NCBI RefSeq assembly: GCF_004010195.1
Contig: NC_057753.1
Span: 14,052,485-14,110,320 of the forward strand
DNA length: 57,836 nucleotides
Reading direction: 5' to 3'
Source: Chiloscyllium plagiosum
Lineage: Eukaryota
Below, piece after piece: positions 23,665-56,528 of this stretch. Each line of letters starts with the position of its first letter. Within the stretch, counting starts at the first letter, position 1. The position numbers and the translations under genes were made by a program. Under the pieces are notes generated by a model. That model searched no databases. It saw nothing but the letters and a program-made list of their open reading frames with translations, and had not been told where the DNA came from.

Positions 23665-24566
23665 TCATTGCTTTATGCAACTAGTGAAGATAGTGAAGGG
23701 AGACATCAACGTATTCTTTAGCTCCTCACGGAATTTATTCTGGGCTATTGTATATATGAAGACATTGTTGCAGGAATTGATCATTTGGAGCATGATAGTC
23801 GTCTCTTGAAGGATGTACTGAGGGTCATTGAAGTCCAGTCCACCGAAGTAACCTTCTCCTGAAATCTGTACGTACAAAAACCGTCCAACATAGGTGGCCC
23901 ACAAGAAAAGGAAACTAAGAGAGATCGCAAAAAGGAGCACAATAGATTTCTTGCGATTGGAAATCTCCTGATCACTTCGATTCTCGGCGCTCCTGATCCT
24001 TTTCCGGGCTCTGCTGGCTGCTAATATGTTAGTTACAGTGATTGCATTGAGCAGCAGAATAAGGAGAAATGGGAGAAATGGAACGAGGATGTGATCCAGC
24101 CAGTCGTAAGTCTGCCAGATGGGTGAAATATAATAGCTTGACTTGATAATGCAGAACCAGGGTACACCTTTCAGTGTGTATAATGGCCTAAAGATGAAGT
24201 AAAAGGGGGTGTTTTTGATGCAGCTCAGGATACATACGATTCCTATCACCATCGATGCAGTTTTGTGAGTGCAGTACCTGATCTTCAAGCTCTGGAAGCA
24301 AATAGCCACAAAACGGTCAAAGGTGAAAGCAACCGTTAACCAGACTGACCCATCCCGTATTGTAAAAATCAACATGGTGCTCAGTTTGCATGCAAGTGTG
24401 GTGGAAAGTAAACTGTCTCGAAAGTAAATACGGCCGATTCGATTCAGGATGCACCCATTGATGATTACAAGGAAATCAGTCACTGCTATGGCCACTAGGT
24501 AGTAGGTGATGCAACAGGACAGTCCACATCGACCTCGTGATAGGATTATAATCGCCACCACATTTG
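23665..24566 (-). CDS. GPR139/GPR142-like class A GPCR, paralog A, coding exon 2 (spliced product 323 aa)
   Basis: Acceptor ttcgttcctcacag|CA AAT GTG gives ANVVAIIILSRG. 902 nt open to TGA. Motifs: LVAIAVTDFL (TM2), C3.25, SVWLTVAFTFDRF (TM3), PFLPFLLILLLN (TM5), NNVFIY (TM7). Intron 24567-29650. Confidence 0.95.
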
Positions 24567-24734
24567 CTGTGAGGAACGAAAAGAACTGTTGTTGAAAGAA
24601 TCTTATTTTTTCAGCGAATCTTTAGCAGTAATCCTCATGCAATCTTTCGCTGTAACTTTTCTTTCCCACCTGTTTAACAACGCTAGCCATCGTCTATTTG
24701 AAAAATAATGCTCAGAATTTGGCATCTCATAATC

Positions 24735-25990
24735 AATTAATTGAATTGAATTGAAGTGAGTTGAATTGAATTGAATTTATTGACACATGTACCGAGGCAC
24801 ACTGAAAAGCTTTGTCTTGTGAGCAATACAGACAGATCACAGAGTTAACAAGCATTGATAAGCAAATAATAGGTAAATGGCAGCAGAAACAAAAACACAG
24901 GTGCAGGCGTATGTTAAGAATTTGTGAGTCCATTCAGTATTCTAACAAAAGTAGTATACAAACTTTTCGAAACTGGCTGGTGCATGTTCTCAGGCTTCTG
25001 TACTTTCTCCACGATGATAGATGTTGTAGAAAACTATTTCCAGGGTGGGATGGATCTTCGAGAAGGCTGGCAGACGTTCCTTGACAGCAGGTCTGATAGA
25101 TGGATTCTGTAGATGGGAGGTTGGCCTTTGTAATTGTCCAGGCCGAGTTCACCACTCTCTGTAACCGTGCCTGATCCGGAATGGTACAGTTGCCATAACA
25201 GGCAGTGATGACATCCAGACAGAATGCTCTCGATGGTGCACCTCTAAATGTTGATAAGGGTACTGACAGTCATGCCAAATTTCCTCAGCATCCTGAGGAG
25301 GAAGAGATATTGTAGGGCTTTTGTAACCAGTGAGTCCACATGAAGCGTCCAAGAAAACATGTTGTGAATGCCCCCTCCCAGGAGCTTGAAACTTTCCAAT
25401 CTTTCCATCTCTGTGCTGTTAATGTGTGTATGTGAGTGTGTGCGTGTGTGTGTGGGGGTGGGGTGGGGTGCGGTGCGGGGGGAGCATGAGCAAACCCCGC
25501 TGAAAGTCAATAATGACTTCCTTGATTTTGCCAGTATTGAGAGCTCGGTTGATGTGAGTGCACCATTTATCCATATCTTCCACCTTCAGTTTTGTCGCCA
25601 TCTAAGAGTTGACCAACTATAGTGGCATCATCAGCGTACTTGTAAATGGAATTAGTCTGGTATTTGGCGATGCAGTCATGGATATACAGTGAGTACAGAA
25701 CGAGGCTGAGTACGCACCCCTGGGAGGGGGGTGTCTAGTGTTGAGTGTATTTGAGAATGAAATGTTGCCCTCAGTCTTCACTGATTGTGGCTTGCAGGTC
25801 AAGACACTGCGGATCCAGTTTCAGAGAGTGGGGCTTAATCTGAAATCACTAAGTATGGTAATCAGTCTAGAGAGGATAACAGTGTTGAATGCTGAACTGG
25901 AATCAATGAGTAGGTTTTTTTACGTTGCTGTTCTTGGTGTCAAGATGTTCTAGGGAGGAGTGAAAGGCAAGTGATATGGCATCTGACGTA
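24735..25990 (-). mobile_element. Rex1/Babar-like non-LTR retrotransposon 3' half, in the intron of paralog A
   Basis: KWCTHINRALNTGKIKEVIIDF and ERLESFKLLG...SWTLHVDSLVTKALQYLFLLRMLRKFGM. YADD-type motif near 25630. (AATTC)n tail at 24735-24778. Confidence 0.8.
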
Positions 25991-27052
25991 GATGCTTGCT
26001 AATACAGAATTCTTTGCAATCTGTCCCGAGCACACACTCCATCCTCTGTTCATGATGGCAAGAAATGTGGGTAGTTCCCAAACTTAGAGACATCCAAGCC
26101 AGTAACCGCCCATAGCCCTCTTTCTTAAAACCCCATTCATTCGTCAAGCGTACACTTAATGAAATACATTGATTTTTGATTTTAACAGTCTCTTTGCTCA
26201 ATTGTGACTGTGGGAATGTTCAATTCAACTTTGGCTGTAAGACCATTACCCACTGATCCTTATTGGGATTAGCAAATGTGCACATGTTTTAGTTCCTCAA
26301 GGATGTATTTTCTTTTCTGGACTGCCTTGGAAGAAACATTGTTTTTTTTTTATTTTAGTATTGGGTAGTTACTGGACCACGCAGAGTATGAGCATATTTT
26401 ATGTCTTTATCTATTTTTGTCACAATCAGGGTGCACTTAAAATACTTTTTTAAAAGGCATTGTATCAGCCGCTTCATTCATCATCTTGCAAATTTTGACT
26501 GCCAATGTGTATGTCCTGTATTTTTTTTTTAATTCTTCTGACTGTTCATCTGATTATGTACCTGACTTCCTTGCATTATGGATGAGTAATTGCTTTGCCT
26601 TTGTAGCAAATGGTTGCCTTTATTCATTCTTATTCCAGAGAGCTTTTGTTTTGCCAACATATGAAAAATGTATGATCACTCTCAGATCATCTATTTTCCT
26701 AAGTGTGATCATTCAATGATATTTCTTCCTGTGAACTTATGACTGTATTGAAGACATTTCAATTGTTTGTCAGAACATCGTTCTCATCACAAATTATTCA
26801 CTTTTGTTTCCAATGCTTTATATTAGGGCAAAGTAGTAGTGCCCAAATTTTGAAGAAGGTAAGATTTGGGTTCAGATCGCAACTGATCCAATAGAGTGCA
26901 CCAACATCTCTCAAGTGGTTAATTGAAAATACTAGAATTTTCCACTGGATGGCTTTTGTGGCAGAATGTCAGTTTCCCTCATGCTCTTGCAAGAAATACA
27001 GAAGTTCAACTAACAACAAGATAAATCATCATTAGGTTAACAAGTCGCTAAA

Positions 27053-27265
27053 ATCCGAAGTCACGTGACGAGAGCTTACAGTCTAATGAGTGTATTTGAA
27101 ATCACAAGCTATCGGAGCTCTGCTCCTTCATCAGGTGTTATGACTTCACCTGATAGAGGACCAGTGCTCAGAAAGTTTGTGATTTAAATAAGCCTGTTAG
27201 ACTATAATCTCGTGCTGTGAGATTTCTGATTTTGTCCACACCAGTCCAAAACCAGGACCTCCATA
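27053..27265. repeat. Short palindromic interspersed repeat (probably Penelope-terminus derived)
   Basis: Inverted arms tttgaaatcacaagct...atcaggtg / cacctgat...tttgtgatttaaa. A related half copy lies at ~32075-32190. Confidence 0.6.
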
Positions 27266-29650
27266 TTTCATTTCATCAAGACAAATTTCGTCACATGGTT
27301 CAGATGAAGACTGTCGAGAAACAGCTCTCTATTTCCATATTATTACAGAATGGGAACTGGTTTTCACCCACACCAATATTCTAAGCAGGAAATCAACACT
27401 ACAATATCATTTACCCAGTAACAATTTGCAGTTGGCTCGGGAAGGGAAACTAATGTCTTTACCTTTCCTCATATTAATTCAACACAGAACTACAACGCCT
27501 CAGCGCAACCTCTTCCACTTTCCTATGTCATTGGTACCTCATGGATAATGACGACTGGACTCTACTCTCCCATTCCAAGTTAAAGTCTCTCCTAGAAGAG
27601 AAATATTGACTTTTGGAACCAGGTAGGTAATACAGATTTAAGATCATTCAATCTTTGCTACTGGAAACTGCATGGATTTCCCAAACAATGTTGTCGCCAT
27701 TTAGTACGATATTTGTCCTTCCACACTTCACTTGAATGACCCTCCGAGCCAAGGTGCCTTTGGCAGTTCGTTCATGCTCCCCGCACTCTGTGGTCTCGTC
27801 CATACTGTGAGCAAAATCCATTATTTCCAGGATAAGGTACTGCTGATGCTCCTGTAAAGCTGAATTCTGCAACTTCGCTGCTGCTTCATTTGCAGTCACA
27901 CCCTCCCTTGTCTGAGCGTGATTGATTGCGAAACATTATTAAAGTATCTCCCTCCCTAATGTAGTGCAGTGTGTACAGCTCAGACTCCAACTAATCAAAT
28001 CCGATCCGAAAATTTTCAGTCAGCTAACATTTGCTGTGCTGGTGTCCAGCAACTCTCATATGGTGTCGCGGCAGAATATGACTTGCTCACGGATATTTTT
28101 CATTTCATTAAATTGGATTTTAAATAATTTAATGGTGAATGTCTTAATTGTATTCTTCAGATATATTAATGTCTCGTGATTTAAACCAATTGGTCAATCG
28201 AAAGGTAACGAAGAAATGTCGAGCAATCACCTAACAAGTTGTCACATTGTGGTTCTTTCAGGAATTTACAAATTGGAATGACTTTCTGCCGCTGCCATTT
28301 TTTTCTCTCCAGGGTTCACTGTCCTCTACACTCGGGTTAACTTGGTCTTTTATAATGTTGCTGACCTGCTTTCAGGTAGATTGAGAAGCAGTTCACATTG
28401 CTCTCTCTCTCTCTCCTGATTTTATGAAGCTGCTATATCCATTAATCCATTTTGCCTTTTAGACTTGATCTAAAAATGAACATTTTGTGAACCATGTCTG
28501 GTAAACTCTTTGCAGTAGCTGATTAAAGAGAGGAATTCCAACTGCACAAGTAGAAACTAAGCAATGCCAAGAAACATTGACCTTGTCAGAGGCAGTCACA
28601 ATCTACTGACATTCCAACCAATACTTTCCAAAAGAACAATTCAAGATCAAATCGTAACTGCACAGGATGAAATAGACAATAACTGTAAAAAACACTTTCC
28701 TCTCAATGTACCTCCTTCGAACATTTCCATATTTAATTGTCAATATCATATTAACAAAGGAGACTGCCCAGTAAGAGTTCACGAGACTGTAACGGATACA
28801 TCCTTCCAGAGATCGCATTGTAACTATGCAGAATTGCTATGTGCATTCCATACCAAAGCGCAAGTATTATAAGGATGACTTTGTGTATTATTTTGTTCTT
28901 CAATATCATTACGAAATAAAAATGCCGTTTATTGCTCAGTGGAACACAATTGTGTGAAACACACTGGATGACAATTAAGTATATTATAACGACACTGAGT
29001 GCTGAGCAGTAAAGTAAATTAATGTTCCTATACTGACATGCATTTCATTGCATAATGGCTGCAGCCATTAAGAAGGACATTCTGCCCATTACGTTCAGAC
29101 TGGCTATTGAAATGATTATCCCACTCAATGGAATCACCCTACCAAAACACTAAACACATAACATTGTTAATTTTGATGTGAACGCCAAGTTCCCTTATGA
29201 AAGCCTTGTTTGAAAATTCTTTTTACCATACAGTCAAGAATGAAAATACAGACTGACTCATTTCCTGAATGTAGAGTCTATTCTTAATATTATGTTTACT
29301 CTTTTAGCGAAGTCTTTTTATGTTTTTTTTTTATTTTATGGTGCCCAGATCTCTATCATTTTATGAGAAGTGACATACTTCAGCTATCTAAGAAACGATA
29401 ATCCAATAAATGTGTGGCATTATAAATGGAGCAATGTCCTTTGTTACCCCTAAAGTAATTCCAAGGAATGCGCGAAATTGATCATAGCATGATATTGCAT
29501 TCAGTATCACATTACTTTAAAGCACTATTCCAACTGTATTTATTTACGTCCCGATCATCCTGATTTTTTTTAAATCCTGATCAGGAAATGGAAGAGATAA
29601 AACCCCTGGAATTTAGCGACTTCATACACTGTAGAGCATTTGTTTCTTAC

Positions 29651-29720
29651 CAGGGGCACCAATAGCGGCGAGAATGGGATAACAAATGGCAAAGACCGGT
29701 CCGTTCGCGGGCGCGTGCAT
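29651..29720 (-). CDS. GPR139/GPR142-like class A GPCR, paralog A, coding exon 1 (MHAPANGPVFAICYPILAAIGAP)
   Basis: ATG at 29720. 70 nt (23 codons + 1 nt) ending at donor G|gtaaga. Same length, phase and similar peptide as the first exons of B and C. Not in the ORF track. Confidence 0.9.
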
Positions 29721-29796
29721 CCTTTTTGAAAAAAAAACAATGGATATTCCCGAAGTTTTAGGCCGTTGCTTTGTGACACGTTGAAATCATCCAATA

Positions 29797-29834
29797 TTTA
29801 TTTAAAGCGAGAGTCTCCAGAGGAGTAATTAATT
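29797..29834 (-). promoter_or_regulatory. Candidate core promoter of paralog A: homeodomain + O/E(EBF)-like motif and TATA-like AATAAA
   Basis: Sense strand AATTAATTACTCCTCTGGAGAC at 29834-29813 and AATAAA at 29802-29797. Positionally conserved in B and C. Confidence 0.6.
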
Positions 29835-30759
29835 TGAAACCTGCACCTTACAACTCAGTGAACAAATAGATTAACTTATTTCCCATTAAATCATTGACAT
29901 TACGATTGTATTTATGCGAGAATCGATAGATACAAATTGTGTGCTTCTCCCCATGTCAGAAACTATATTTTTAAATTTTCATCACTGTAAGCGTAAATGG
30001 CAGATTTGAGTTGAAGTCTCATCTCAACCTTCAATCTGTATCTCTCATCTCTTCAAACTTCCAAAATATTTCCTTCTTTCAGCTGACAGATCGGTTCATG
30101 CATTATCCTCATGACTCACTGATTTTGAATTCAGCAATTCAATCTGACCGAAATCTTAAAATGATTCAATGTCTGAAACATTTGAAATCATGTTTTGGGT
30201 AATAGGGTGGAGTGAAGTAACAACAGAAACATGCCTTGGAAAATTAGCATCAAGGTGACTGGCAGTGGTGAAATCCAAATTGCAAATTGCAAAAGTAAAT
30301 GTTTTGTATAATAGCTGATATAACAGAGTCATGTATCATGTCATTTAAAAAGAATTATGGTCTCAGTCTGAAACAATTTGCACATGGTTTCGTGAAATAA
30401 AAGGACAAGCATATCGTCTTCTGGAATGAAAGGAGCGTTTAATGTGATCAGGCTGCAATATCAGTGAACTAATGGCATGACAAATGTGATAGAAACTGTA
30501 TAGTACAGAAAAATGAGATGATTACTTAATGTAGTTAGAAATTACCAATGAGAAAAGTTTTTAAAAAGGATTTATGTAACACAGTGCAGTCTTGCAATAA
30601 CTGTGCAAGTGCTAAACGGTAGCATAAATCAATGGTGCAAGTTAATCTGAACCGAAACAGAATTTAGTCATACTATCTCGCAGTGCATGGTCTAATGTTA
30701 TATGCACAGCATCAAAGATAAAAGACAGCATAACCAATTGACCGGTTTATTTTCACATA

Positions 30760-31560
30760 AACTGCTGTCGTCCTGGTGAAGGTGGTGGTTGGCAGTAGGA
30801 ACTGATGTAGAGTGCCGAAGCGTTCATTGTGATGAGGAATATTCCAGCTTCGACTGCTCCGTGGGGACTGAGTTTCTGCAATAGGTCTGTAGTGTCCCGA
30901 AGGAAACTGGGGGTTCCTCTTATAATGGGTTAAAAGATGGCCTCGATGTTGCCAGAGAAGCTGTCACGCAGGTCTTCGGGCTGATACGATAACATGTCCA
31001 GGTGTGTTGGCTTTGTGTATCTGGAGAAAGCAGTTGTATTCTTCTATACGAAATATACGCGGGATGAGAGTGACTAGGACAATGTGAAAATCTGGATCTA
31101 AGATGTTGATTAGTCTGTTGAGTCGACAGATATGTTCATTGGTCAAATAATTAGGTCTTTGTTATAGATATTGGCATCAAACGTGGGAACACCACCCACG
31201 ACCTTGTCGGCAGATACTCTTGTAACAAGGCCACTGTCCTCCACTTCATACCGTGTCGGCAATGATGCCACGAGACATGGTAGATTGGCAAGACCATGCA
31301 GATGCAACGACTATGGATGAATTGATACCACATAACAATTGGCAGAAGCTAGACCGCCTCCCCACACATTCTGGAGCAATTCAGTCGTCATGGACATTTA
31401 GCCTTCAATCTTTGTGAGAGCGTCCTTGCAATGCAGAACAACCATGCAGAAACTGACAGATCCATACTTATTAACAGAGCCTCAACTGTGGCCTTGGGTA
31501 CATGCCGTACTACATGTAACCCAACCATCCACTTCTCTATCTATAATTTTTTTACTGTTC
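30760..31560 (-). mobile_element. Decayed Penelope-like RT fragment
   Basis: Minus-strand peptides LQIHKANTPGHVIVS and GTPSFLRDTTDLLQKL...ITMNASALY. Confidence 0.75.
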
Positions 31561-33589
31561 TGTTTGGACACAATAAACGTAATAACTTGTTACAAACTCT
31601 CTATTTTAACTAGTTTATACAATTTTGAATCTCTGGTTAAGTTGGTTCAATTATCAATATTCGACTCTTGTACATACAATGTTATTTCAGACATTCAGTT
31701 TGTCTCCAGAACTACCTCATTTTTATGGTTTTTAAAAATTATCTCTTTGCCTCAATTAAAAGGATTATTGATCCTCCCTTCAATTGTTCAACTGTTGACA
31801 CTTGATATGCATCCTGATGAAGGGCTTTTGCTCGAAACGTCGATTTTCCTGCTACTCGGATGCTGCCTGATCTGCTGTGCATTTCCAGCACCACTCCAAT
31901 CTTGACTCTTATCTCCAGCATCTTAGTACCCACTTTTGCCTACATTTTACACGTCATCTGATGTTTTTCATCACCAGGAGGACTTACTTTTCAGTTTTTC
32001 GACTCCTGACTTGCAACATATGTATACTCTTTTAATCTTTCTGCCATTAATTCTGTGCCCCGTGTGCTTCTCTTCACTTCACCTGATGAAGGACTAGCGC
32101 TGCTAAAACGTGTGATTTCAAATAAATTTCCAAAACTATAACCTCCAGTCATGTATCCTCTGACCTTATCCAACCCATTTGTTCACCAACACCTTTATTT
32201 CAGTGATGAAGACGGAACTCAAAACACCACTTTGTTATCTTCCCCACCTGTGTGTGTGAGAGAGACAGCGTGTGAGAAAGAGAATATATATGTGAGAGTG
32301 AGACAGACAGAGAAAGACATCACATGTTGTCTTTATGTGTGTGTGAGAGTTACAGAACGTGTGTTTGAGAGACAAGGACGTGGAGAGAGAGATAAATCCC
32401 GCCTTATCTCGACCTAAAATGAGGCAACCATAATCTTAAACCGTGTCAGATAATTTAAGGCTCTTCCTTCAAAGTCCAAAAGTTACCAACACATTCAAAT
32501 TCTCGTAATAATATGAATATATTCATTTTGGAAGATGCTTTGGTGAAGTTTGATGTTTTGCACACAGAAATCAAAGGTCTCAGCCAGAGCATATCATTGC
32601 AGAATTCTTCGTGGTAGATTTCTCAAGCTAACCCTTCATCAAAATCATCAATGGCCTTTCCTCCATCATAATGTCAGATGCAGAAATTCACTCATCATTG
32701 CGCAATGTTTGCCTCACATGAATCTTTAGGGACTGAAGCAATCTGAGCTTAAATGTAGCAATAGCACATCGCACTCAGGTTTGGCTGGAGCTGGAACAGG
32801 TACCATTCATGCAATGAAATATCTGGAAATGGAAATCTCGAATGAGAAATAATCAAATCATCACTGCGGGACATTACTGGATTGCACATGCTAAATTACT
32901 CATAGTGTTCAGTGATGTGCATGTTGGATATGTTTTCCGTGTGAAATGCAGGAGTACATGGATAGGGTAAGGGGATGGATCGGGGTTGGTTGCTGTTCGG
33001 AGTTATGTGTGGTTTCGTTAGGATCACTGACTAACTTTCACAGTAAAGGGATTTTATTAACAGTGACTTTCTAAATTGGGCATACGTTTACTGTGGAATT
33101 CGTGGGGAAAATACATAGGCCCCCTCCAGTTCCTTAAAATATGCTAACGATCTAGAACTTGGTGCACAAGGAAACATTTCCAAAGATACAGACAACAAAA
33201 AAATGAGAGCATTGTTCACTAAAATGCGACATTGTAAAGACACCGACAGAAAGCAAGCTGGTGGAATGAACCGCTAGGTGGCAGATGATGTTCGATGTGG
33301 AGATGATACTACTGAGCATCCTTACAGAACTTCTGCAGTCCACATGTTGGAAATCAAGCGCGTTTCGTCGCCTGAGATGGTTCTACTGAGCATCCCCCTT
33401 AAACTTCCACAGCCCACCTTTTGTAAATTAACCTGGTTGCAGCACCTGAGAGGTTTGCTAGCCCTGTATTTACCAACAAATTGGAGATTATTCTATTGCA
33501 CTCTCGACGAATGCGACGTGAATGTCAGGCAGGAGATAGGAAATTCGGAGAAGAATTCTTTGCCGCTATATTTCTATATTCTGACCTGC

Positions 33590-34099
33590 TCCTGTACTCA
33601 CTTCTTCAGTTGCGGGTATCATTTGAGTTTTGGGTGAAATATCACCACTGGGATGTTGTTGTGGGGAATTCAATAACAGCAAAATAATTGAATGTCAAGT
33701 TGAAGTGGTAAGATTGTGATTCAATGGAGATGACTATTGCCTGCATTTGTGTGTAGTGAATGTTACGTTCCCCTTGTCAGTCCCAGCCTGTGAATACTTT
33801 CTTGAATGTAATGCTTCAGGATGTAAGGATACTGCTTCAGTATCGAAATATGCTGCATATTCTGAATATTAAGCAATCATTGTCGACCATCTTCACTTAT
33901 GAATTTATGATGGATGGAAGGGCATTCATACAGTAACGAAGATGGTTGTGCCGAGGACATTAACCAAAGGTATTCCTGCAGAAATGTCCTCGATCTGAGA
34001 TGAGTGATCTCTAACACCTACAACCATCTTGCAATGTGTCAGGCATAATTGTAAAAAACCGACAGTTTACTTACGATGACCACTGATTTCAGTTTTGCT
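33590..34099 (-). mobile_element. Decayed CR1/L2-group LINE fragment
   Basis: Similar by eye to the old LINE at 250-1150. Confidence 0.45.
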
Positions 34100-34811
34100 T
34101 GTTACGACACTGGTAACCCCCTCCTCCCACTGCTTAATTTAAACCAGCAACACATAAAACATTTATCGCGTGCAGTAATCTGTGAAAATTCGAGAGGCCA
34201 AGAAGTATTTAAGGTAAAAATTAAAAACTTTATTTCTTAAAGTATAACAGAGAATAACTAACAGCTCTTTAGAACTCCTTTATCTAACCTATTTTAAACC
34301 TTCCCCTTTTACAAAACTAGTCTGATAAAATTCTCAGTTTAAATGATCAAAAATTTAAATTTCAAAATCATTCAAATTTTCTCTTGGTATTTTCCTCTCT
34401 AAGGTATTTCTGTTTCACAGGTCACTGATTGATAAAGGTATCTTTAAGAGACTTGTTTTTCGGGCAGTGTGTATCTTTAAGAGATTTGTTTTTCCCCGGG
34501 TACAAGAGAGTGTTACAAGGGGACATAAATTTAAGGTGAAGGGTGGAAGGTATAGGGGAGATGTCAGGGGTGGGTTCTTTACCCAGAGAGTGGTGGGGGC
34601 ATGGAATGCGCTGCCCGTGGGAGTGGTAGAGTCAGAATCAGCTTTTAATATTGCTAATATACTGAATTCAAACTTGATTGGAGTTTGGAATTTGGTATTT
34701 TTGGGGGTAAAATTTAAATCGATTGGTCTAATTCGAATGTGTTTCTGGCTCCAGGCAACGGGATACGCTAGTTGCTGGACCAAAAGGTTACATTATATCT
34801 TGTTCATAACA
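34100..34811. mobile_element. Probable solo LTR with an internal CR1 fragment (34489-34642)
   Basis: Begins TGTTACG and ends CATAACA, LTR-type inverted termini like 46522-47168. No clear target-site duplication. Confidence 0.55.
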
Positions 34812-35419
34812 GTTGGTGCTGTCAAGTATTTCTGCTAACTTTTAACTTCCTTAAAGGTACAGTACACTTCTGCACCATCATAACAGTGTTATACCATTAA
34901 GGTGCATACAATAATTGTTTTAATCTGACCACATAACATGTTTTGTCATGCTACCGCGCCTGTCTCATTTGACAATGCATAAACAATGCATTGGCTTCGA
35001 CTGAACTTGGTGTCAAGTACAGCTGTCGCCAATTTCTGTATGACGATATTAGGCCCAGCTTCATTAGCTACTCGAATGCATATCTGTTCGTGTATTATGC
35101 TACCATTTGTCACTGATCGCATGTCACTATTTTCGAGCTCAGTTCTATCCACAATACAGAATGTGCCATTATATTTTCTGTGTCTGCTTTGGAAATGTTC
35201 TCAATGCTAATATCACTGGGCCCACACCTCAATAATTACTCGCGATATTTCTCAGTTTCTATTATTAAGTGGTAACTTTTAGGTTCTTCCTTCCGTGAAA
35301 ATGTTGAATTTAGTTTCAATTTCAACACCTGAGAATTAAACGAACACATAAAATGCTATGCAATCCATATTTGATGAAATATTTGCATATTTTCCATCCA
35401 CGTCATATCCAAATATGTC

Positions 35420-35860
35420 ATAAGGTCATAAAGATATACAGTATTGAATAGGAACGAACTCATCCATGCCGACCTGATGTTCTAAATTAGTCTCGTCCCA
35501 TTTGGGCAGGGTCCCTCGAAACCCTTTCTGTTCATATACTCATCAAGATACTTTTAATATATTGCAATTGCATCAAACTCGAACACTTCCTGTGGCTGTT
35601 CATTCGACACATGAAGAAGGCTTTGTGTGGATGAGTTGCCTTTCATATCTCTTTTAAATCTTTCCCCTCTCACCTTTAACCTATGGCTTCTAGTTTGAAA
35701 CAACCCTAAGCTGGGAACAAGACTCTCTCCATGCCCTCGTGATTTTATAAACTTCTGTAAGGATACCTCTTGGACTCCAATGTTACTGGTACAATATCCA
35801 CAGTCTATTCCCTATTCTGCCTCTGACTGTAGCTCAAACCCTCCAAACTAGGCAACATTC
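35420..35860 (-). mobile_element. CR1-type LINE 3' fragment
   Basis: Similarity to 2370-2850. Confidence 0.8.
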
Positions 35861-35880
35861 TTATACATTGAAACAGATCA

Positions 35881-35945
35881 TGTGTATGCGTGTGTGCGTG
35901 CATGGGTATGTGTCTGCGTGCGTGCGCACGTGTGTGTGTGTGTGT
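35881..35945. repeat. Imperfect (TG)n microsatellite
   Basis: Direct reading. Confidence 0.9.
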
Positions 35946-36235
35946 ACTTCAGATTGTATCACCAGCAAGAACAATATAATTAATATGATATCTAAAAGAG
36001 AGAAAATAATTTTGAACTGGTCAGAGATGAGAAAACACGTTTTTTTTTATTTGAGATCGACCTCAACTCATTGTCAACAGCGGAAGTGAATGTGGCTGCT
36101 GAATGTATTATCAGTTCTTCACCCACAATCAAAAACAAAGAACCACTGCATCTCCCCTTGCAATGTTAGACATTAAAGGCATGAAACTGTGAGTTAATTT
36201 GTTTGTTTGTTGAATGGATGTAAAAAATTCTGTCA

Positions 36236-36271
36236 TAATTAACCCCTCTGGAGATAATCATGCAGAATAAA
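36236..36271 (+). promoter_or_regulatory. Candidate core promoter of paralog B: homeodomain + O/E(EBF)-like motif and TATA-like AATAAA
   Basis: TAATTAACCCCTCTGGAGAT at 36236-36255 and AATAAA at 36266-36271. Confidence 0.6.
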
Positions 36272-36344
36272 TGAGAGATCTTTAGAAAGTGTCTCAGAAA
36301 CAAGCTGCACAACTTGGACAACACCATTATTTTCCAAAAAGGCG

Positions 36345-36414
36345 ATGCATGGTCCAGCAAATGGTTCTCTCTATGCTATTTACTACATACTTCTCGCTGT
36401 TATTGGTATGCCAG
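36345..36414 (+). CDS. GPR139/GPR142-like class A GPCR, paralog B, coding exon 1 (MHGPANGSLYAIYYILLAVIGMP)
   Basis: ATG at 36345. 70 nt ending at donor CCAG|gtaggg. Homologous to the first exons of A and C. Confidence 0.9.
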
Positions 36415-37773
36415 GTAGGGGATGGAATTGATTTTGATTTTTATTCGGTCAAAAGGAAAAAAAGAATCCCTTTTAGAACGCGACTTTACTTAAGGAAACC
36501 TTCAGCTCTGTCTGACCGTAAGATATTTCAGCTGATTCTGATATTTATACGAATTATATAACATGCCGTTATACTCTAGTAAATTACATTACATATACTC
36601 AAAATGAACTGTGAAGCAATGCATGATTATAATATGCTTTACCGCGCAAAATTATGGTTCAATAGTCTATTCAGTAATGGAAAGACAAAGTGCAATTTGT
36701 CCAATTGCATGACTTCATCGGTGTGAATACTGAACATTACATTCAATAATATTGCAGGAAACAGCAGTGTCTTGTTTTCATTTGTTCGTGTGTGTGGTCT
36801 GTTGAGTTATAAAGTATCCTGGTGTAAGAATCATTTTTCTTTCATTGCAATTTCAGAGACTGCATTCCAGATCAATTAATGTTTACATATAAAACACGGG
36901 CATACATTGTAAGAATCTACAGTGCGAACTCAAGAAAATATTAGTTGGAGCATATTGAATTGTGAATGAAAGGCTAATTTATAATATGATATCAAGAATC
37001 AACTATGAAAATGTTTGAGGTGCATTAAATGATCTCGCATATGTCTTGCTTTTGTGTGTAAACCTTGTGGATTTGGATTTTTTTGGACATTATTTTGGTG
37101 AAAACCGGGATTTTTTGCTGTTTCTGGAAATGTCAATATCTATTGTCCATCAATTGTTTTCATCATCAATGGAGTTGCATTACTTTCCTCAACCACGAAT
37201 TATGCCGGCCGTAGGAATATTTCGAGAGATCTGTTTTCTAAAGAAAGACAAACATGACACAAAATGACATCAAAAGAAATTGGAAAAGCACGTGAATTCA
37301 ATGATAATGGAGTTTAAGTTGAATGCAGCACCGAAAACGGCGAGAAGGAGATGGAGAATTTGAGCAACTGAGGCAGTAGTCAGTTGGTATGGGGAGAAGT
37401 GGGGGAGGGGGAATGGATTCAACGGTTTGCACCAGTTCAAAAACAACATCAGAAACATCATTGAGGCAATCATCAACATGCATGCATAAAAGGACAGCAT
37501 TGGAGGCAATTTTCGATTTCCGATAATTGGAGCTTATTCTTTGGTTGGCAAGAGCTGAGAAATAGGAGGAATTTGCAGTGAAGGCAGTGAGTATTAGAAT
37601 TGAAAATCTGGTGGGGTGGGAGAAGAAATAACTCAACCAGTGCAGTGGTAAAGCTGGTATGAAGTAAAGTTTTGTGCCTCTTGGCGCAGCAAGGGTGCCA
37701 TGGTAACAGGTTGGAGGAAGCAGTAACTGATGTTTCGAGAACCTTTGGTAATGTCTCTCTTTATCTCTCACAG

Positions 37774-38675
37774 CCAACTTCATAGCAATCATAATTCTAT
37801 CCCGAGGGCGGTGTGGACTCTCCCGGTGTATCACTTTCTATTTGGTGGCCATAGCGGTGGCTGATTTCCTTGTCATCACCACTGGTTGCTTACTCAACCG
37901 GATCCCCAGAATGTACTTCAGGTACAGTATACTGTCTACAACCCCAGCGTGCAGCCTGAGTGCCGTGCTCGTGTATGTCACACGGGATGGCTCCGTTTGG
38001 TTGACAGTGGCTTTTACCATCGACCGTTTTGTGGCCATCTGCTCCCACAGCCTGAAAACAAGATACTGCACTGACAAAACTGCTTCGCAAGTCATGGGAA
38101 TTATCTGTGCACTAAGCCTCATAAAGAATATTCCTTATTACTTCATATACCAGCCTTTATACGTTCTGGACGAGGTTTCCTGGTTCTGTGACATTAAAGC
38201 CATCTACTATTCCTCGCTAGCCTGGCAGGCCTACGATTGGTTGGACCGGATATTAACTCCTTTTTCACCCTTTCTCCTCATTCTCCTACTCAACGCCTTG
38301 ACGGTAAGACACATCCTTGCAGCCAGCCAAGCCCGCAAGAGGCTCCAACGAAGTCAGAAGGGTGAAGACCAAGAAATAGCCAACCGAAAGAAGTCTATTG
38401 TCCTACTTTTCGCCATCTCTCTCAGCTTTCTTCTTCTTTGGATTACGTATGTCATTTATTTTCTGTATGTGCGAATTAAAGGCGATGCCTATTTCAACAG
38501 TTTGAATTTTAATGACCCTCAATACATCCTTCAAGAGACTACGAAAGTGCTCCAATTACTAAGTTCTTGCAACAACGTTTTCATTTACGCTGTGTCTCAG
38601 TCCAAGTTCAGAGAGCAGATGAAGAATGTGCTAATGTGTCCCTTCACCATTGCAAGTCGTTTCTTCAGTACATAA
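37774..38675 (+). CDS. GPR139/GPR142-like class A GPCR, paralog B, coding exon 2 (spliced product 323 aa)
   Basis: Acceptor ctctctttatctctcacag|CC AAC TTC gives ANFIAIIILSRGRCGLSRC, in frame with ORF 37842..38675. 902 nt with DRF and NNVFIY motifs. Intron 36415-37773. Confidence 0.95.
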
Positions 38676-38819
38676 AAAAACCCTCATTTTTCTTGCATTA
38701 AAATTGCCCCGTGTGCCACTCTCTTTTTCTCTCACCGGAATGAGGAAGTTCTGCATTTAAGATCCTGACGTTGTCAGAAATAGAAGGCTAATTGTGTTAA
38801 TTCCCGGAGATGGGGTATT

Positions 38820-39514
<695 letters not shown>

Positions 39515-43860: not shown

Positions 43861-43899
43861 CATAACTAAATCACTGAGCCTGAACATCACTGAAGACTG

Positions 43900-48943: not shown

Positions 48944-50067
48944 GCAGGGTTAGATTTCATGGAATACAGGGTGAACTAGCATTTGGGTATTGAACTGGCT
49001 CAAAGGTAGAAGATGGGGGTGGTGATGGAGGATTGTTTTTCAGACTGGAGTCCTGTGACCAGTGGAGTGCCACAAAGATCGGTACTGTGTCCACTTATTT
49101 TCATCATTTATATTAATGATTTGGATGTGAGTTTAAGAGACATAGTTAGTAAGTTGGCAAATGGCACCACAATTGAAGGTGTAATGGACAGCGAAGAAGG
49201 TTATCTCAGATTACAACCGGATCTTGATCAGGTCGGCCAATGGGCTGAGAAATGGACAGATAGAGTTTAATTTATATAAATGTGAACTGCTGCATTTTGG
49301 GAAAGCAAATCTTAGCAGGACTTACGCACTTAATGATAAAGTTCTAGGAAGTGTTGCTCAACAAAGAGGCCTGAGAGTGTAGGTTCCAATCTCCTTGAAA
49401 GTGGATTGACAGGTGGATAGGATAATAAAGAAGGCATTTGGTATGCTTTCCTTTATTGGTCAGAGTATTGAGAATAGGACTTGGGAAGTCATGTTGCGGC
49501 TGTATAGACATTGGTTAGACCACTGTTGGAATATTGCGTGCAATTCTGTTTTCATTCCTAACGGAATGATGTTGTGAAGCTTGAAAGGGTTCAGAAAAGA
49601 TTTATAAGGATGTTGCCAGGATTGGAGGATCTGAGTTACAGGGAGAGGTTGAATAGGCTAGGGCTGTTTTCCCTGGTGCGTCGGAGGCTGATGGGTGACC
49701 TAATAAAGGTTTACAAAATCATGAGGGGCATGGATAGGATAAGTAGACTTTGCTTTTGCTGAGGTGGGCGAGTCCAGAACTGGAGGTCTTAGGTTTAGGG
49801 TGTGAGGGGAAAGATATAAAAGAGTCCTAAGGGACAACGTTTTCACGCAGAGGGTAGTATGTATATGGAATGAGATGCCAGAGGAAGTGGTGGAGGCCAG
49901 TACATTTGCAACATTGAAAGCAAAACTGGGTGTGTATATGAATAGGAGGGATATGAGCCAGGTGCTGGCAGGTGGGACTAGATTGGATGGAATATCTGGT
50001 CGGCATGGACGAGTTGGACCGAAGTCTTTTTCGGTGCTGTATATCCCTATGACTGTATGGCTCTAAG
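48944..50067 (+). mobile_element. CR1-type LINE 3' part inserted in the Gypsy RNaseH
   Basis: SDWSPVTSGVPQRSVLCPLIFIIYINDLD and KLERVQKRFIRMLPGLEDLSYRERLNRLGLFSL. Confidence 0.92.
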
Positions 50068-51233
50068 TAACGTTTACGAGATAATTGCATAACCAATTAA
50101 AGATTTTGGAAAGAAAATTAGGAGCGGAAATTCCTAACTGTTTAGATGGAACTTATTACTTCTGCCATTCAGTTTGAAACTTATACATGTTACAATACAA
50201 GCGAACGTAATTGCAGACACCTTGTCATAACTTTGACGAAGGAAGTGGGAGGCTTTTAGTGGCAAGAAACAAAATGGCCTTAAATGAGTCATGGTAGTGA
50301 ATGTTTGCACGTTTAGAGTCAACCTGATGCATATGTATTATAATGTACTGATAAAGTAACACAAAAGACTTTTAAAACTGAGGCCATCTCCACTGAATTA
50401 TGTTTCACGTTTTAAAGAGCTAGTTGTGGTGATAGTGTGGCTTTAAATTGCGTATTTTGTTCTGTTATTTTTACGCAGAATGGTTGCGATAGAGATGCCT
50501 AACCATTCAGTCACAGAACATTACTTCCTTTTCTTAAATTTGGAACAATATAACCAACCTGCACGGGGAGTGGCAACCTTCCACAGAGCCAGGATTGTTA
50601 ATTTTTGCTAACCAATAGCTGCGGCATTGAAGCTGCGCTTGGACGTTGGAGTGCTTCTCTCCCTGCTACGCTCTCTGTCTCAGAAATTTATCTTGGTGTA
50701 CTTTCCTCCTGGACTGGATAACTGCATGCAAGACCAACTATTTAACTGAATTTCCCTTCGCCAAGAGTGTGTTGATTCGGTGTTACTATATTGGAAGAAC
50801 TGATTTTTCGTTAAAATAATCTATCATTCTGTTAAGTTTTCCAATAGAGTTTAAAAAGATTCGGATTTCTTCTTTATTTTGAGGTATTTTAACTATCGTG
50901 TCTTAATAGAGTGTGCTTTGCATCAAGGCTGGCAGCTTTATAAATCGAGTTACACCTGCAAAGCAACTCGTCTCACTCGACTTTAAAATAAGATAAGGTT
51001 ACTGTCTAAGCTATTGTTTTACTATATTTTAAGGAAGTTTGGTCTGGTCTGTCGGGAGATGTTCAAACTGCATAAATGTTTTGCAATGGAAGACAGATCT
51101 TCATCTCGATGAAACCGAAGTAAATTGGCAACTACAGAAGGAAGCAAACATGCATACCAAGTTGGTGAAATGTTCTGTTGTCTGAGACGATCTGTTTATT
51201 GCAGCTTGATCAATAGAAGTTAATCATAAAAAC

Positions 51234-51285
51234 TGTGTGTGTGTGTGTGTGTGTGCGTGCGCGCGCGCGCATGCATGCGTGTGTG
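51234..51285. repeat. (TG)n/(CG)n alternating purine-pyrimidine microsatellite
   Basis: Direct reading. Confidence 0.9.
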
Positions 51286-53867
51286 TTCTGACACATTTTT
51301 GCACGTGCCAACTATACATAAGCACATTTTTTTAAAACATAAAAGGTATGTATTTGAGCACATTGGGCAGGATTCATATATGTGTGGCGTCAATCAACCA
51401 TATTCCACCACTTGGTCACAATTTTAATGCCGAGATGCGCACATATTTTGGTTCAGCAAATCATGCATCTGCCACGAAAGCAAACTGAGATGGTCACCCC
51501 ATTGTACCCGGGCCATTACTGCTTGATTTGTGGTATGTCTAATTACTCCTACAAAAACAGAAATGTCGGAATTAGAATCAAATAATATTATTTTTTTAAA
51601 AAAAGTGTTGGCAGCATTCGGGGCAGACTCCAGTATCAATTTATTGCCAGACTTCAGAAAAGTAAAAAAAAAGAAACGATATTTCAGTGTGATGTTCAAA
51701 CTCAGGTGGCAAAATTGAAATCTCAGATCACAGCAGGCTTTGCTCTAACATGACAGCGTTATTAGCAAATGATGGAATGTGTAAGGCATGAATATTAAAT
51801 TAACAGACTATTTACGAAAGCAACTGTTTTCACGAAAAGATGTTCTTAAGAAAAGTCAAGTTAGATTGGACATGAAGCGAACAGAAAGTGGTAATATTTG
51901 CAACAGAACTGTGAACGAACAATACACATTTCTAAAATGTACCAAACGCCACTGTAAGGTTCAATGTGAATATTAATTTAAAAGAAAATTAACTTGGATG
52001 CTGGAAATCTGAAACAGAAACAGACAGTGACAGAGAGACATTGCATTTATCATAGTATCCGCGGAGAGACAGAGTTAACATTTTGATTTCAATAAGACTC
52101 TGCTTATAAAATGTTCTGATACTTCCAAAGTACATTCTATATTCACTTCAGCCTCCGAGTAATCACGGTATCCATCTCTGGCATCCAACTAGGAGCAAAA
52201 TATGTGAGTATGATAAATGAAAGTCGCTTTTGCAATTTTTGTCGCAACATAATTCGTTCATTTGATTAAAAAAAACTGAATTCGAAACAACAAATTGAGA
52301 ACGGTGGCATGTGTTAGAAAATAATTTGTTTACTTGTCCCGTTTGTAAATTTTAATCCTTTTCAATATTAAAGGGAATCACTTTTGAAAATAGGGTTATA
52401 AGAGCAGGCTGATAAAACAATCTAGCAGAAAATGTGGAGGAAATGTACGGCAATGATGGTGAGGAATCAAGGAAAGAAGTAGAAGCTATGAATACTGGCT
52501 TTGATTGAACAGAGAGCGTCGGGGCCTGCCGGTTTGGGATCTAATTTATGGTCTGCCACTGAATTCAAGCATTTATTTCTTTCTGTGATTCTAACTATGC
52601 ATTTACTAAAACAAGCTCGCTCAATTTTAGTCTTTCAGTCTCGTAATCTCAGTTTCGATCGATTGAGATTCATATTCAACAGTCTTTTTTGTTACACGTT
52701 GCTGATTTCTTGTGTGAATTCTCGATCTCAATTTCTCTGGAAGTGCCGCTGTGGTCAAACTGAATTTTTCCTATGCCACTTTTGCGAACCTCACATTTAT
52801 GGCATTTGGAGTGAAAACAACATCTGCTTCCCTGGAAGAGTGAGAGATAATTGCTGCCATTAAACGATTTTAATTTTTATTAATGTAAAAAACTGCCATG
52901 GTTTGAAACAGGTTGATAGACGAATGAAATACATAGAGCCAACAGTATGAGAATCGACACGTACAGCGGGACTGGAAACGGCAGGTCAACATTGAACTGT
53001 AACCGGATCTGAATTATTATGATATATTAAACCAGGCGAGTGTATTGAAGAACACCTCCTAAAACGTAATCAGGTCAAAGTATGCTGAGGAGACATTAGA
53101 CAAATTACATTTATTTTCCGGAGTGAAAGGTGGAACAGGGTACAATTTGGTGCAGCGATGATACCACTTATTTTTGGGAGCCATTACCGCGAATTCCAAT
53201 ATGACAGCTGTAGAATTTGATTTCCAATCAGTAAGTGTTGAATTGGAATAGTCACTGGAATGTTAACTGCACAATCACCATGTGATTTTCGAATGTCACT
53301 TAGGGAATATCATGTTGAAGACTAACCATGTCTTGTCAACATATGCACAACAATGTCGTAAGACCTTAAAATTGCTCTATAAAGACCGGGCAATATTTCC
53401 CGTTTAAGCGTAATTTGGAATGGGGATCTAAGAAAGGAACAATTTTGCTGTCTGTTTTAAGAGGTCATGGCATCTCAAAGCATTTGCAACAAATTCAATC
53501 ATTTTCTGTTGCGAAGCAGTAAACGTGACACATAAAGTGACAAGCACAGTATATCATAAAATTAATCACACAAGTAAGCGAAAATTCGTCCGTTTCAGTG
53601 GTTTGAAGAGAGTGATAAATGTTGGCCAATAACTCTTGTTTCATTTTGAAACAATGAATGTTATTTTTTTTCCCTCAGCCGTTGGGCATCTCATTCGGGA
53701 AGACAGTGACTTCATTCTTTCAGTTTCTATTTAGTACGTTCAAAATAGCATGGGTGGGGATGACAGCCTGAAATATGTCTGAAAGGCGTTTCGAGTGATT
53801 TGAGAGATACTTCTCCAAACTTAAGCGTCCTGATGGAAATAATAAAAGAAACAGATTTGATCAGTTT

Positions 53868-54769
53868 TCATTCTTTGGAGCAACTGGTGACAGCGTCAAT
53901 CGGAAAAATCAGTAGCTTCTTCAACTCCATTCGAAACTTCTTTTGGACTATTGTGTAGATGAAGACATTATTGCAGGAACTGATTATCTGGAGCAAGTTG
54001 GTCGCCTCTTGAAGGATGTAATCAGGGTCATTGAAATCCAAACCAGCGAAGTATGCTTTTCCAGGAATACGCACATAGAGGAAATGTATGACTTGTATGA
54101 TCCATAGGACGAGGAAGCTGAGAGAGATAGTGAACAGCAGGGCTATGGACCTCTTGCGGCTGGCCAACTCCGGGTCTCTATCATTATCTGTGCCATGTAG
54201 TCTCCTGCGGGCTTGGTTGCTTGCCAAGATGTGTCGCATGGTCAGGATGTTGAGCAGTAGAATGAGGAAGAAAGGAAGAAACGGGATTAAAATGTGATCC
54301 AGCCAATCATAGGCCCGCCAAGCGAGTGAGCTGTAATACGCAGACTTGATATCACAAAACCAGGCCACACCATCCACAATATACAAAGGTTTGTAGGAAA
54401 AGTAAAAAGGCACGTTCTTGATAGCATTAAGCAGGCAGACAATTCCTATGACCAGCGACGCTGTTTTCTTGAGGCAATATCTGGTCTTCAGGTGTTGGCA
54501 GCAGATAGACACAAAACGGTCAATGGTGAAAGCCACTGTTAGCCATACTGAGCCATCTCGGCTAAAGTAAACCAGCACAGCACTGAGAGAACAGCCGGTG
54601 GTTGTGGACAGTACACTGTAGGTAAAATAGATGCGAGCAATTCGGTTGAGAATGCATCCGGTGATAATCACAAGGAAATCGCTCACTGCTATGGCCATCA
54701 AATAATAAGTCACACACCGAGAAAGTCCACACTGTCCACGGGACAGAATTACAATGGCCACCAAGTTGG
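53868..54769 (-). CDS. GPR139/GPR142-like class A GPCR, paralog C, coding exon 2 (spliced product 323 aa)
   Basis: Acceptor ttttgtttcactctgatag|CC AAC TTG gives ANLVAIVILSRG. 902 nt open to TGA with the same TM motifs. Intron 54770-56351. Confidence 0.95.
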
Positions 54770-56351
54770 CTATCAGAGTGAAACAAAAAGGGAAATATTG
54801 ATTACACGACATGAAACATAAAGTACTCTCTTATCCAATATTTGACAGGGAAAAAAAACTCTTGACCTGTTTGCTTTGTCTCGATTCAGTAGAAAATAAA
54901 CATAAACTGGATACCACCCAATGTTAATTTAAGCATTTGCTAATCCACGACTCTAACACAACCCATTACAAAGTCTGAATTCTGGCCACGAAGTCCATCC
55001 ATGCCATTCCATTTCAGCTCAGTGGAAACAATTGTTGTCGAAGCTTTTGAGCACAACAATTTCCACCCAATCAACAAACTTATTCTCGCTGTTTGGCATT
55101 TTCTCCCTTCCCAGCAATTGTCTAGCTTCAATAATCTCGTCCATTCAAGGTCAAATCATCCAACGCTATACCAATCTAGCTCAAGCAACAGCTAGAAGTT
55201 TCTTGAAGTATCAGTGCACCAGCAATGCCTCCGTGCTATGCATCCCTGGTATTAATGATCCATCAGTGGCAATTGTGCCTTCACCTTTTGAACTCCAATC
55301 TCGTGAATTCCCTATCTGAATTGACATTGTTTCTCCTTTCTTCTTCAGAACATTCTTCTAATCTATATCTTTAGTCAAAGCTCTGGTTGTCTCATGCGAA
55401 ATATCCACTTTGTGCTGTGATAAAATGTGTGTGTTAAAGTTCCTAAACAAGATTTTCCATGGCGTAATGCAATCATTGAAGAAATATACTTTGTAAATTG
55501 TTAATTGGAAATTATCAATAATGCTCATTTTTCCAGACAGCAATAGCCTGCTATTGACAACAATCTATTTTCTGAAAATAAAATCGAATGTTTAAAATCT
55601 ATCAGAACAAGCAATAGTACATCATCAGTTAGAAACATTGCAATGCATTCTGTGGCAAGATCGTCATTAATTGCCTATAAAATTTCTTCCTCGGCTATTT
55701 CGGGGTGCAATTACGAGTCACCAACATTTTTCTGCGTTTTGAGGTGCACGAAGGACAGAACAGGCAAAGACGATAGATTTCCATCCCTGCAGGACATAAC
55801 TAAACTTGGTAAGATTTTGTTTCATAGCTTCCAATGCATGCCGTGACCTCCACTGCCAGGTTTTATAAACTTAAACCGCACCAGTTGGTATATTGAAATT
55901 GTAAGTTAAAGCTGCCAGTGACATCTCCGGTGTGCTACCAGCACGTTCTCTTGCTATATAAAGGTTTGTCTTTTCCCTGCAAATTAAATAGAGTTGAATG
56001 CATTGTACTCACTTATAGTAAAGCCCAATGCTGATGGATTTTCATACTTTGCGATTCATATTTCAGCAATTCAAGTAGCTTTTTTTTTTACAAAGGACAT
56101 TCAGCATAATATGTAGGGAATATTTTGAAACACTCCATAATATCAGTATGAAAATGGATTTTAATTTACTAATTAACAAGATAATACGCTCAAAAGTAAT
56201 AGGTTTCTGGTTCAGGTCACTTATACTCAGGTAGCATTGAATATTTAGCCAAAATGAAAACGAATCTGTATAGAGAAGAGGCAACATTTTCTGGGGCGTT
56301 TTAAAAAGTAAACACACTAATTCAATAATTTTTTTGCTCATCAATAATTAC

Positions 56352-56421
56352 CTGGAACACCAATAACAGCGAGAACTGGATAACCAATGGCATAAACGAT
56401 GCCTTTTGCTGGCCCATGCAT
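56352..56421 (-). CDS. GPR139/GPR142-like class A GPCR, paralog C, coding exon 1 (MHGPAKGIVYAIGYPVLAVIGVP)
   Basis: ATG at 56421. 70 nt ending at donor CCAG|gtaatt. Homologous to the first exons of A and B. Confidence 0.9.
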
Positions 56422-56492
56422 CGACCTGGGGAACCTGAAGAAATCTCAATAACTGTGGCCCTGAGACTGTCAAATAGTCGACGCTTTCCTGT

Positions 56493-56528
56493 TTTATTCC
56501 AGGTGCTAGTCTCAAGAGGAATGATTCA
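56493..56528 (-). promoter_or_regulatory. Candidate core promoter of paralog C: degenerate homeodomain + O/E(EBF)-like motif and TATA-like AATAAA
   Basis: Sense strand TGAATCATTCCTCTTGAGAC at 56528-56509 and AATAAA at 56498-56493. Confidence 0.55.

Follow-up and report, generated by a model that had tools for sequence, protein, structure and literature searches.

A stretch of 57,836 nucleotides from the shark Chiloscyllium plagiosum (NCBI RefSeq assembly GCF_004010195.1, contig NC_057753.1, positions 14,052,485 to 14,110,320 of the forward strand; this whole stretch is henceforth called the window) was found to carry three intact two-exon genes for G protein-coupled receptors (GPCRs) of class A in mixed orientation, which belong to a large receptor family of cartilaginous fishes. 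Judged from sequence comparisons, this family would best be explained as an undescribed chemosensory repertoire of these animals, most likely serving olfactory neurons, for which a probability of roughly 50% is estimated; a role in a sensory cell of whatever kind appears likely. New in this analysis are a single-copy relative of the family, a contrast in the variability of the ligand pocket, and the statistics of a shared promoter block.

Open reading frames (ORFs), splice sites, and Pfam matches bore out the original prediction, i.e., an earlier reading of the same DNA, that three intact seven-transmembrane genes of 323 amino acids are present, each built from 70 and 902 nt. In each gene (A, B, and C), a 70-nt exon starting with ATG runs up to a GT and is followed by a 902-nt exon behind an AG, with the acceptor placed exactly 902 nt ahead of the stop codon in the six-frame ORF reading. 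Gene A lies on the minus strand, with exon 1 at 29651..29720 (short N-terminus and first half of transmembrane helix 1, positions 1–23 of the family hidden Markov model (HMM)), a predicted GT..AG intron of 5084 nt in phase 1 at 24567..29650, and exon 2 (902 nt including the stop) at 23665..24566. Gene B lies on the plus strand (exon 1, 70 nt, 36345..36414; predicted GT..AG intron, 1359 nt, 36415..37773; exon 2, 902 nt including the stop, 37774..38675) and gene C on the minus strand (exon 1, 70 nt, 56352..56421; predicted GT..AG intron, 1582 nt, 54770..56351; exon 2, 902 nt including the stop, 53868..54769), the first exons of both being placed by ORF and splice-site reading together with the family HMM. 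The spliced products are 323 amino acids long, have zero internal stops and no indels between them, share 66–69% pairwise identity, and matched Pfam 7tm_1 in all three cases (E-values 7e-21 to 7e-19). Scanning the window with the family HMM brought up neither a fourth copy nor a remnant. Over 323 amino acids, the spliced products of A and C match the C. plagiosum RefSeq models P0028 and P0027, respectively, at 100% identity, and the B protein is 96.6% identical to P0001 of C. punctatum; the identity of A and C to RefSeq represents agreeing gene predictions, possibly on the same assembly, and not proof by RNA. Both RefSeq models are named “probable G-protein coupled receptor 139,” so that genes A and C are already catalogued, under a name that the sequence relationships reveal to be misleading. 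Nei–Gojobori ratios of nonsynonymous to synonymous divergence (dN/dS) among the three genes were 0.11–0.20 at dS of 1.2–2.1; hence, they are considered old duplicates under purifying selection. A contrast of dN/dS between extracellular and intracellular parts was inconsistent among A, B, and C, with dS near saturation.

The homolog search yielded 955 clusters (90% identity) at an E-value of ≤ 0.001 from 3186 candidates. Among the best 120 of these 955 clusters, 117 were named to 16 species of sharks, skates, and rays and 3 were unnamed; C. plagiosum contributed 8 and H. ocellatum 17, and the 120th-ranked cluster was still 58% identical to the query. The matches among these best 120 were clustered in the genomes: 10 of 11 from whale shark fell on one sequence of 11.7 Mb, 11 of 14 from horn shark on one of 59.5 Mb, and 4 of 8 from C. 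plagiosum on one of 15.3 Mb. In a library of 50%-identity representatives, 104 reached an E-value of ≤ 1e-30, and of 15 family-side representatives looked up, 13 were chondrichthyan (sharks, skate, stingray, electric ray, and the chimaera Callorhinchus milii) and 2 came without species. The chimaera protein nests within the family in the trees, and therefore the expansion predates the chimaera–elasmobranch split, which has been dated to 420 Myr (PMC6368271). The family is thus a multigene repertoire, i.e., large, lineage-restricted, and clustered; the lineage-specific expansion proposed earlier was confirmed by size and clustering, with a range wider than sharks that spans cartilaginous fishes including the chimaera. 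Neither low copy number nor one-to-one orthology with GPR139, which had been named in advance as counter-evidence, was found, as the window alone holds three copies and the similarity to GPR139 amounts to 38–50 bits. No paper describing this shark receptor family was found in the literature searched (mostly open-access articles, some supplements unread), and GPR139 names were absent from the supplement files searched for the whale-shark (12 of 24 files), catshark habenula (4 of 5), skate genome (2 of 3), and catshark cartilage (8 of 8) studies.

Among solved structures, human GPR139 comes closest in sequence, with 50 bits (E-value 2e-12) for P0001 and 38 bits (E-value 1.6e-8) for exon 2 of gene C. 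Two unnamed vertebrate genes are far closer, at 145 and 129 bits. By this comparison, the family members are not GPR139 orthologs, just as the original prediction had held, and the single copy typical of GPR139 and GPR142 is replaced by three copies within the window. In 20 amphibian species, the first relative forms a single cluster apiece, and sturgeon has it too (25 matches); no teleost or amniote match was among these 25. The second relative (“coelacanth-type”) extends from sharks up to squamates, and three shark species had one cluster apiece among the matches listed. Trees, which were built without true GPR139 and GPR142 sequences, joined the family with the amphibian/sturgeon gene (Shimodaira–Hasegawa-like approximate likelihood ratio test (SH-aLRT) 99 with 70 rows; 95/91 with 28 rows), and the coelacanth-type gene, including its shark copies, fell outside the family. 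Past vertebrates, the next sequence matches were annelid and nemertean orphans, and the next clusters by language-model features were FMRFamide-receptor-like sets with Srw on 17–74% of their members.

Both single-copy genes were also noted in their own right. The amphibian/sturgeon GPCR (P0216/P0400/P0416 group) has a near-invariant predicted pocket with R2.61, K6.51, K6.55, E6.58, and R7.35 and is a candidate receptor for one conserved ligand, probably acidic or peptide, as far as the predicted pocket tells; no description of it was found in the literature searched. The second gene (P0221/P0279 group) is a single-copy GPR139-like gene of sharks, teleosts, amphibians, turtles, and squamates; the 120 matches listed include none from birds or mammals. 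Like GPR139, it retains R6.51 and D7.36. TMEM183A isoform names on two records of this gene suggest that it adjoins TMEM183A, and it may be a GPR210 of PMC6504862.

For analysis of the ligand pocket, 24 class A positions (a Ballesteros–Weinstein set) were compared with 50 other positions in the outer halves of the helices as control, using 49 diverse family members of near-full coverage, including the three window proteins and excluding fragments. Across these 49 members, entropy was 2.69 at the pocket and 1.89 at the control positions (P 0.0001, 10000 resamples). The excess was likewise seen in 23 family members of normal length (2.48 vs 1.78) and persisted with residues grouped by chemical class. 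The opposite pattern was obtained for 22 amphibian/sturgeon orthologs (0.10 at the pocket vs 0.58 at the control) and for the second single-copy relative (53 orthologs, 0.62 vs 0.99), in groups that differ in overall divergence (mean identity 43% in the family, 74% in amphibians/sturgeon, and 59% in the second relative). Because of these opposite patterns, the single-copy relatives appear to guard one ligand site, whereas the family varies its own, i.e., family-wide, a diversified pocket is carried on a conserved scaffold. This predicted hypervariability of the pocket is the strongest new evidence for the chemosensory reading. It also bears on the proposal that the genes encode receptors for endogenous neuromodulators or peptides in brain or endocrine tissue, as does GPR139, a habenular receptor that has been placed with MIP/SPR, proctolin, and FMRFamide receptors (PMC12208981). 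The identity of 15 of 24 pocket positions in A, B, and C (9 of 24 differ) would agree with such a role, from which, however, an unvarying pocket and few copies would be expected; the single-copy relatives fit this expectation and the family does the opposite, making endogenous ligands very unlikely as the explanation.

The protein anatomy was assessed on an AlphaFold model of P0001, the ortholog of gene B (predicted local distance difference test score (pLDDT) 88, predicted template modelling score (pTM) 0.86). The model comprises seven helices plus helix 8, with helix 1 starting at residue 7 and a beta-hairpin in extracellular loop 2 (ECL2). Together with 7tm_1 and the N1.50, D2.50, DRY, W6.48, and NxxxY motifs, the seven-helix fold identifies the proteins as class A GPCRs; the signalling residues D3.49, R3.50, P5.50, N5.58, F6.44, W6.48, N7.49, and Y7.53 are retained, and P6.50 and P7.50 are missing. 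Across the 49 members, P6.50 is mostly lost (T 51%, V 20%, P 12%), while the amphibian relative retains it; this loss may change activation mechanics. Matches in the fold search were generic (all E-values about 1e-9, 15–22% identity), with CXCR2 at ranks 1–5 and GPR139 at rank 7, and for the modelled structure this search is uninformative past “peptide-type class A.” The ECL2 hairpin typical of peptide receptors and the chemokine/peptide receptors at the top of the fold matches would suit leukocyte receptors for microbial or host peptides, i.e., an immune expansion resembling FPR or MRGPRX2 under EBF1-type blood-cell control. Pocket hypervariability and lineage-specific birth are typical of immune receptors too, and some shark olfactory receptors (ORs) are enriched in spleen. 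This explanation is nevertheless unlikely, given that the fold matches are generic, that the nearest solved receptor by sequence is GPR139, and that the homeodomain site abutting the O/E-like site upstream of the genes (see below) would favour neurons over B cells.

Two arguments of the original prediction for a chemoreceptor did not survive this comparison. The very short N-terminus itself is real, as the start of helix 1 in the model documents, but N1.50 lies at residue 25–28 equally in both single-copy relatives, so that the short N-terminus is ancestral and not diagnostic of chemoreceptors. Amino-acid ligands had been suggested via GPR139, whose pocket for Trp and Phe includes F3.33, H5.43, W6.48, N7.38, and R6.51 (PMC5430874). 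According to alignments and Ballesteros–Weinstein numbering, W6.48 is the only one among six GPR139 pocket residues that is retained in all of A, B, and C: H187 is D in all three, R244 is Y/Y/Q, N271 is I/K/N, and E108 is I/V/V (in A/B/C, respectively), i.e., the pocket H and R are kept in none and the N in one, while position 3.33 is aromatic (F or Y) in all three. Amino-acid ligands can therefore not be argued from GPR139, and this analogy was rejected as unsupported. The pocket of the local subfamily is polar and charged (N2.61, R3.36, D3.37, D5.39, D5.42, E7.36, Q7.42), with frequencies in 123 sequences of 87% for R3.36, 88% for D3.37, 77% for D5.39, 82% for D5.42, and 99% for E7.36.

Introns and flanks of the three genes are unalignable, and the only upstream block conserved in all of them is an O/E-like element, CCTCT(G/T)GAGA, which occurs three times in the window (both strands considered), at −103, −100, and −98 from the three ATGs. 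Nine of its ten columns are identical in A, B, and C, compared to at best 6–7 in introns and flanks and ≤ 6 in 30 shuffles. The full module, AAT(T/C)A followed by CCTCT(G/T)GAGA and AATAAA, was likewise found three times, once per gene. By conserved-block comparison, it lies at 29797..29834 (minus strand) for gene A (TAATTA, O/E-like core 29823-29814, TATA-like AATAAA), at 36237..36271 (plus strand) for gene B (TAATTA, core 36245-36254, AATAAA), and at 56493..56526 (minus strand) for gene C (degenerate homeodomain-like site, core 56519-56510, AATAAA). Using the published consensus definitions YYYCARRRR for O/E and TAATKR for homeodomain sites (PMC5638857), the core fits in all three genes, whereas 0.37% of the 10-mers of the window do so; the window contains 106 YYYCARRRR sites, nine of which have a TAAT core within 9 nt. 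TAATKR stands 2–3 nt from the core in A and B. The earlier claim of a shared homeodomain plus O/E-like module hence holds for the O/E-like block in all three genes, and for the canonical homeodomain site TAATTA in A and B only.

The block persists despite near-saturated synonymous sites, and at the sequence level, the O/E-like plus homeodomain block is selectively kept. Mouse OR promoters are enriched for O/E and TATA sites (PMC3247239), and OR enhancers are marked by abutting Lhx2/Ebf sites (PMC5608512); the layout of the Lhx2/Ebf composite probe of the latter study is similar to that of the shark module in its abutting sites, with a register that is not unambiguously matchable. The block is treated as a pointer to olfactory control and not as proof. 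Further O/E-like sites were seen at 26918 (minus strand) in the intron of gene A, where a one-mismatch core stands behind AATTAA without AATAAA or an exon-1-like frame and may be a chance or decayed element, and at 57387 (minus strand), where an extra CCCCTGGAGA site about 870 nt upstream of the gene C module has no adjacent homeodomain site. The sequence upstream of the three promoters contained no 26-bp satellite array. When metagenome contigs were scanned with the exon-1 pattern for promoter conservation, a single match came up in a GC-rich flagellar gene of bacterial origin and was put down to chance.

Expansion, clustering, and pocket data would fit equally well if the receptors served chemosensation outside the nose, i.e., in taste buds, solitary chemosensory cells, ampullary canals, gut, or somatosensory ganglia in the manner of MRGPR. 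In catshark, OR and V2R-like genes often show expression in organs such as gills and ampullae (PMC11979771), and cartilaginous fishes were described as being without MAS1 and related receptors (PMC8455134), which leaves an MRGPR-like role open. Against this stands the pairing of O/E and homeodomain sites, which is best known from olfactory receptor genes; use outside the nose is accordingly rated as unlikely, albeit the most credible of the alternatives.

Sequencing runs were inspected over 23000-38790 of the window, and no splice-junction RNA reads for genes A or B were found there in runs of unknown tissue. A search across sequencing runs listed no RNA run with this DNA, a result that speaks neither for nor against expression. 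Run X5 placed 261 reads on this region, nearly all of them partial repeat matches, run X6 placed none and carries no weight, and coverage by run X7 (RNA by guess only) was limited to repeats. DNA run X1 confirms the locus and covers all 30 bins of the A–B region with a sequence that differs in places from the window; the differences shown for gene A include N287S, I286V, V26L, and one silent change. Summed contig depth of X1 was 2800–7000 over the bins of gene A exon 2 (23527-24580) versus 14–19 for gene B exon 2, an excess that is probably due to short repeat-like contigs and not to copy number.

If the olfactory reading is correct, the family would go back to one gene, of which amphibians and sturgeon keep a single copy per species; its amplification would have come before the chimaera–elasmobranch split, and divergence of the pockets would have fitted the copies to different ligands. 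The module, located upstream of the ATG by about 100 nt, would be bound by Ebf (O/E) together with a homeodomain factor, e.g., Lhx2, which would drive transcription in olfactory neurons from the TATA-like box. The receptors would each sense water-soluble compounds and signal via a heterotrimeric G protein; amines, amino acids, or short peptides would match the polar and charged pocket of the local subfamily, with no specific ligand predicted.

Several observations weigh against this reading. The nearest 120 homologs plus the three window proteins show no pocket excess (1.06 vs 1.01), i.e., the pocket is not diversified within the nearest subfamily and the excess is seen only at the scale of the whole family. 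The three promoters count as one observation because of shared ancestry, and the homeodomain site of gene C is degenerate. Ebf and homeodomain factors work also in other neurons and in B cells, and expanded, pocket-variable GPCR clusters occur in immune and somatosensory systems as well (FPR, MRGPR). An approximately unbiased (AU) test left an alternative grouping of the amphibian gene with other single-copy genes unrejected (p 0.143), and monophyly of the family with respect to the amphibian/sturgeon gene is weak (86; 54/89). A single-cell RNA run (unknown tissue, about 2% read) had zero depth at gene A exon 2 and ≤ 0.03 at gene B exon 2. Shark olfactory neurons were reported to be microvillous, to use Go and TRPC2, and to express V2Rs and no ORs, and the homeodomain plus O/E logic is known from ORs of ciliated neurons, which sharks lack (PMC10116579); for an olfactory role, an OR-like promoter would thus have to operate in microvillous cells. 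The 50 genes given as most specific to a catshark brain-plus-olfactory library included no GPCR, and as V2Rs were missing too, this point is weak (PMC11979771). Of the unrecognised chemosensory class that had been proposed for these genes, the hypervariable pocket and the kept O/E-like/homeodomain block speak in favour, while the arguments from the N-terminus and from amino-acid ligands had to be dropped.

In its furthest form, the olfactory reading would add a fifth family to the olfactory receptors of vertebrates, larger than any other in cartilaginous fishes, with hundreds of genes or more per genome, more than 400 million years old, derived from one peptide-type receptor of the GPR139 branch, and expressed one per neuron under control of Lhx2 and Ebf; on the sequence comparisons, this form is put forward tentatively, as somewhat short of an even chance. 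If true, it would overturn the view that the shark nose relies on about 35 V2Rs, and invertebrates, with their chemosensory use of the FMRFamide-receptor/Srw branch, would offer a parallel. The catshark chemosensory repertoire was reported as 65 genes, mostly about 35 V2Rs, in a survey that would have missed the present family because its queries were known families only (PMC6368271). Sharks have large olfactory organs and a tiny published repertoire, and an olfactory family of this kind would remove that mismatch and give vertebrate smell a further receptor class of independent evolutionary origin. Whatever its role, a large GPCR family under the label “probable GPR139” contradicts the paucity of GPCRs in cartilaginous fishes stated in the whale-shark genome paper (PMC8455134). 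With the single-copy relative in amphibians, the ancestral ligand and expression site could be approached in laboratory animals (Xenopus, axolotl).

The genes lie in repeat-rich DNA, as the original prediction had stated, with plentiful dispersed repeats including a reverse-transcriptase remnant. Broken copies of long interspersed nuclear elements (LINEs), which we take to be CR1-like, and related fragments were located at 17925-20546 (minus strand), 2356-3488, 9530-10136, and 48944-50071, with an RVT_1 match at 18236-18889. A (TTCT)n array of about 175 copies (38818-39514) starts about 140 nt past the stop codon of gene B. Downstream of gene A, a 32-bp unit recurs in 4.5 copies (22344-22487), and there are two self-complementary hairpins resembling miniature inverted-repeat transposable elements (27050-27233; 4527-4641). 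Rfam gave zero matches. Such surroundings, and the many short sequences among the 50%-identity representatives, would suit a largely non-adaptive amplification in which most copies are redundant or silent. This is the least probable of the explanations weighed, considering the dN/dS of 0.11–0.20 at near-saturated dS, the exactly kept length and exon structure of all three genes, a promoter block that is kept though introns are unalignable, and the range of the family from chimaera to rays.

Compared to known systems, the family resembles GPR139 and GPR142 (orphans of class A that respond to L-Trp and L-Phe) in W6.48, an aromatic residue at 3.33, and NxxxY without P7.50, and differs from them in its many clustered shark copies as opposed to one. 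The amphibian/sturgeon gene (X. tropicalis XP_031757816.1, Pleurodeles XP_069092602.1), also labelled “probable GPR139,” is its sister in the best tree at 27–29% identity to A, B, and C, and differs in having one cluster per species, a near-invariant pocket, and P6.50. The coelacanth-type gene (XP_005988539.1) shares the short N-terminus and 26–28% identity with A, B, and C, whereas sharks hold their own single copy of it outside the family and R6.51 is retained. GPR210A/B were described as orphans neighbouring GPR139 in gar, coelacanth, and fishes by Rinne et al. 2019, in a survey without sharks (PMC6504862). With OR, TAAR, V1R/ORA, V2R, FPR, and MRGPR, the family has in common compact clusters of paralogs and a variable pocket, and the O/E-like plus homeodomain block of the three genes would be a candidate further likeness; the Pfam search of the three exon-2 products returned 7tm_1 and weak Srx only, with no assignment to canonical OR, TAAR, V1R, or V2R, and the shark family differs from these and from FPR and MRGPR by its independent origin in the GPR139/FMRFamide-receptor branch. 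The invertebrate expansions of FMRFamide-receptor-like or Srw type come next in the feature and sequence searches and are distant (24–31% identity). As the shark expansion is nested among vertebrate genes, it is regarded as separate from and parallel to them.

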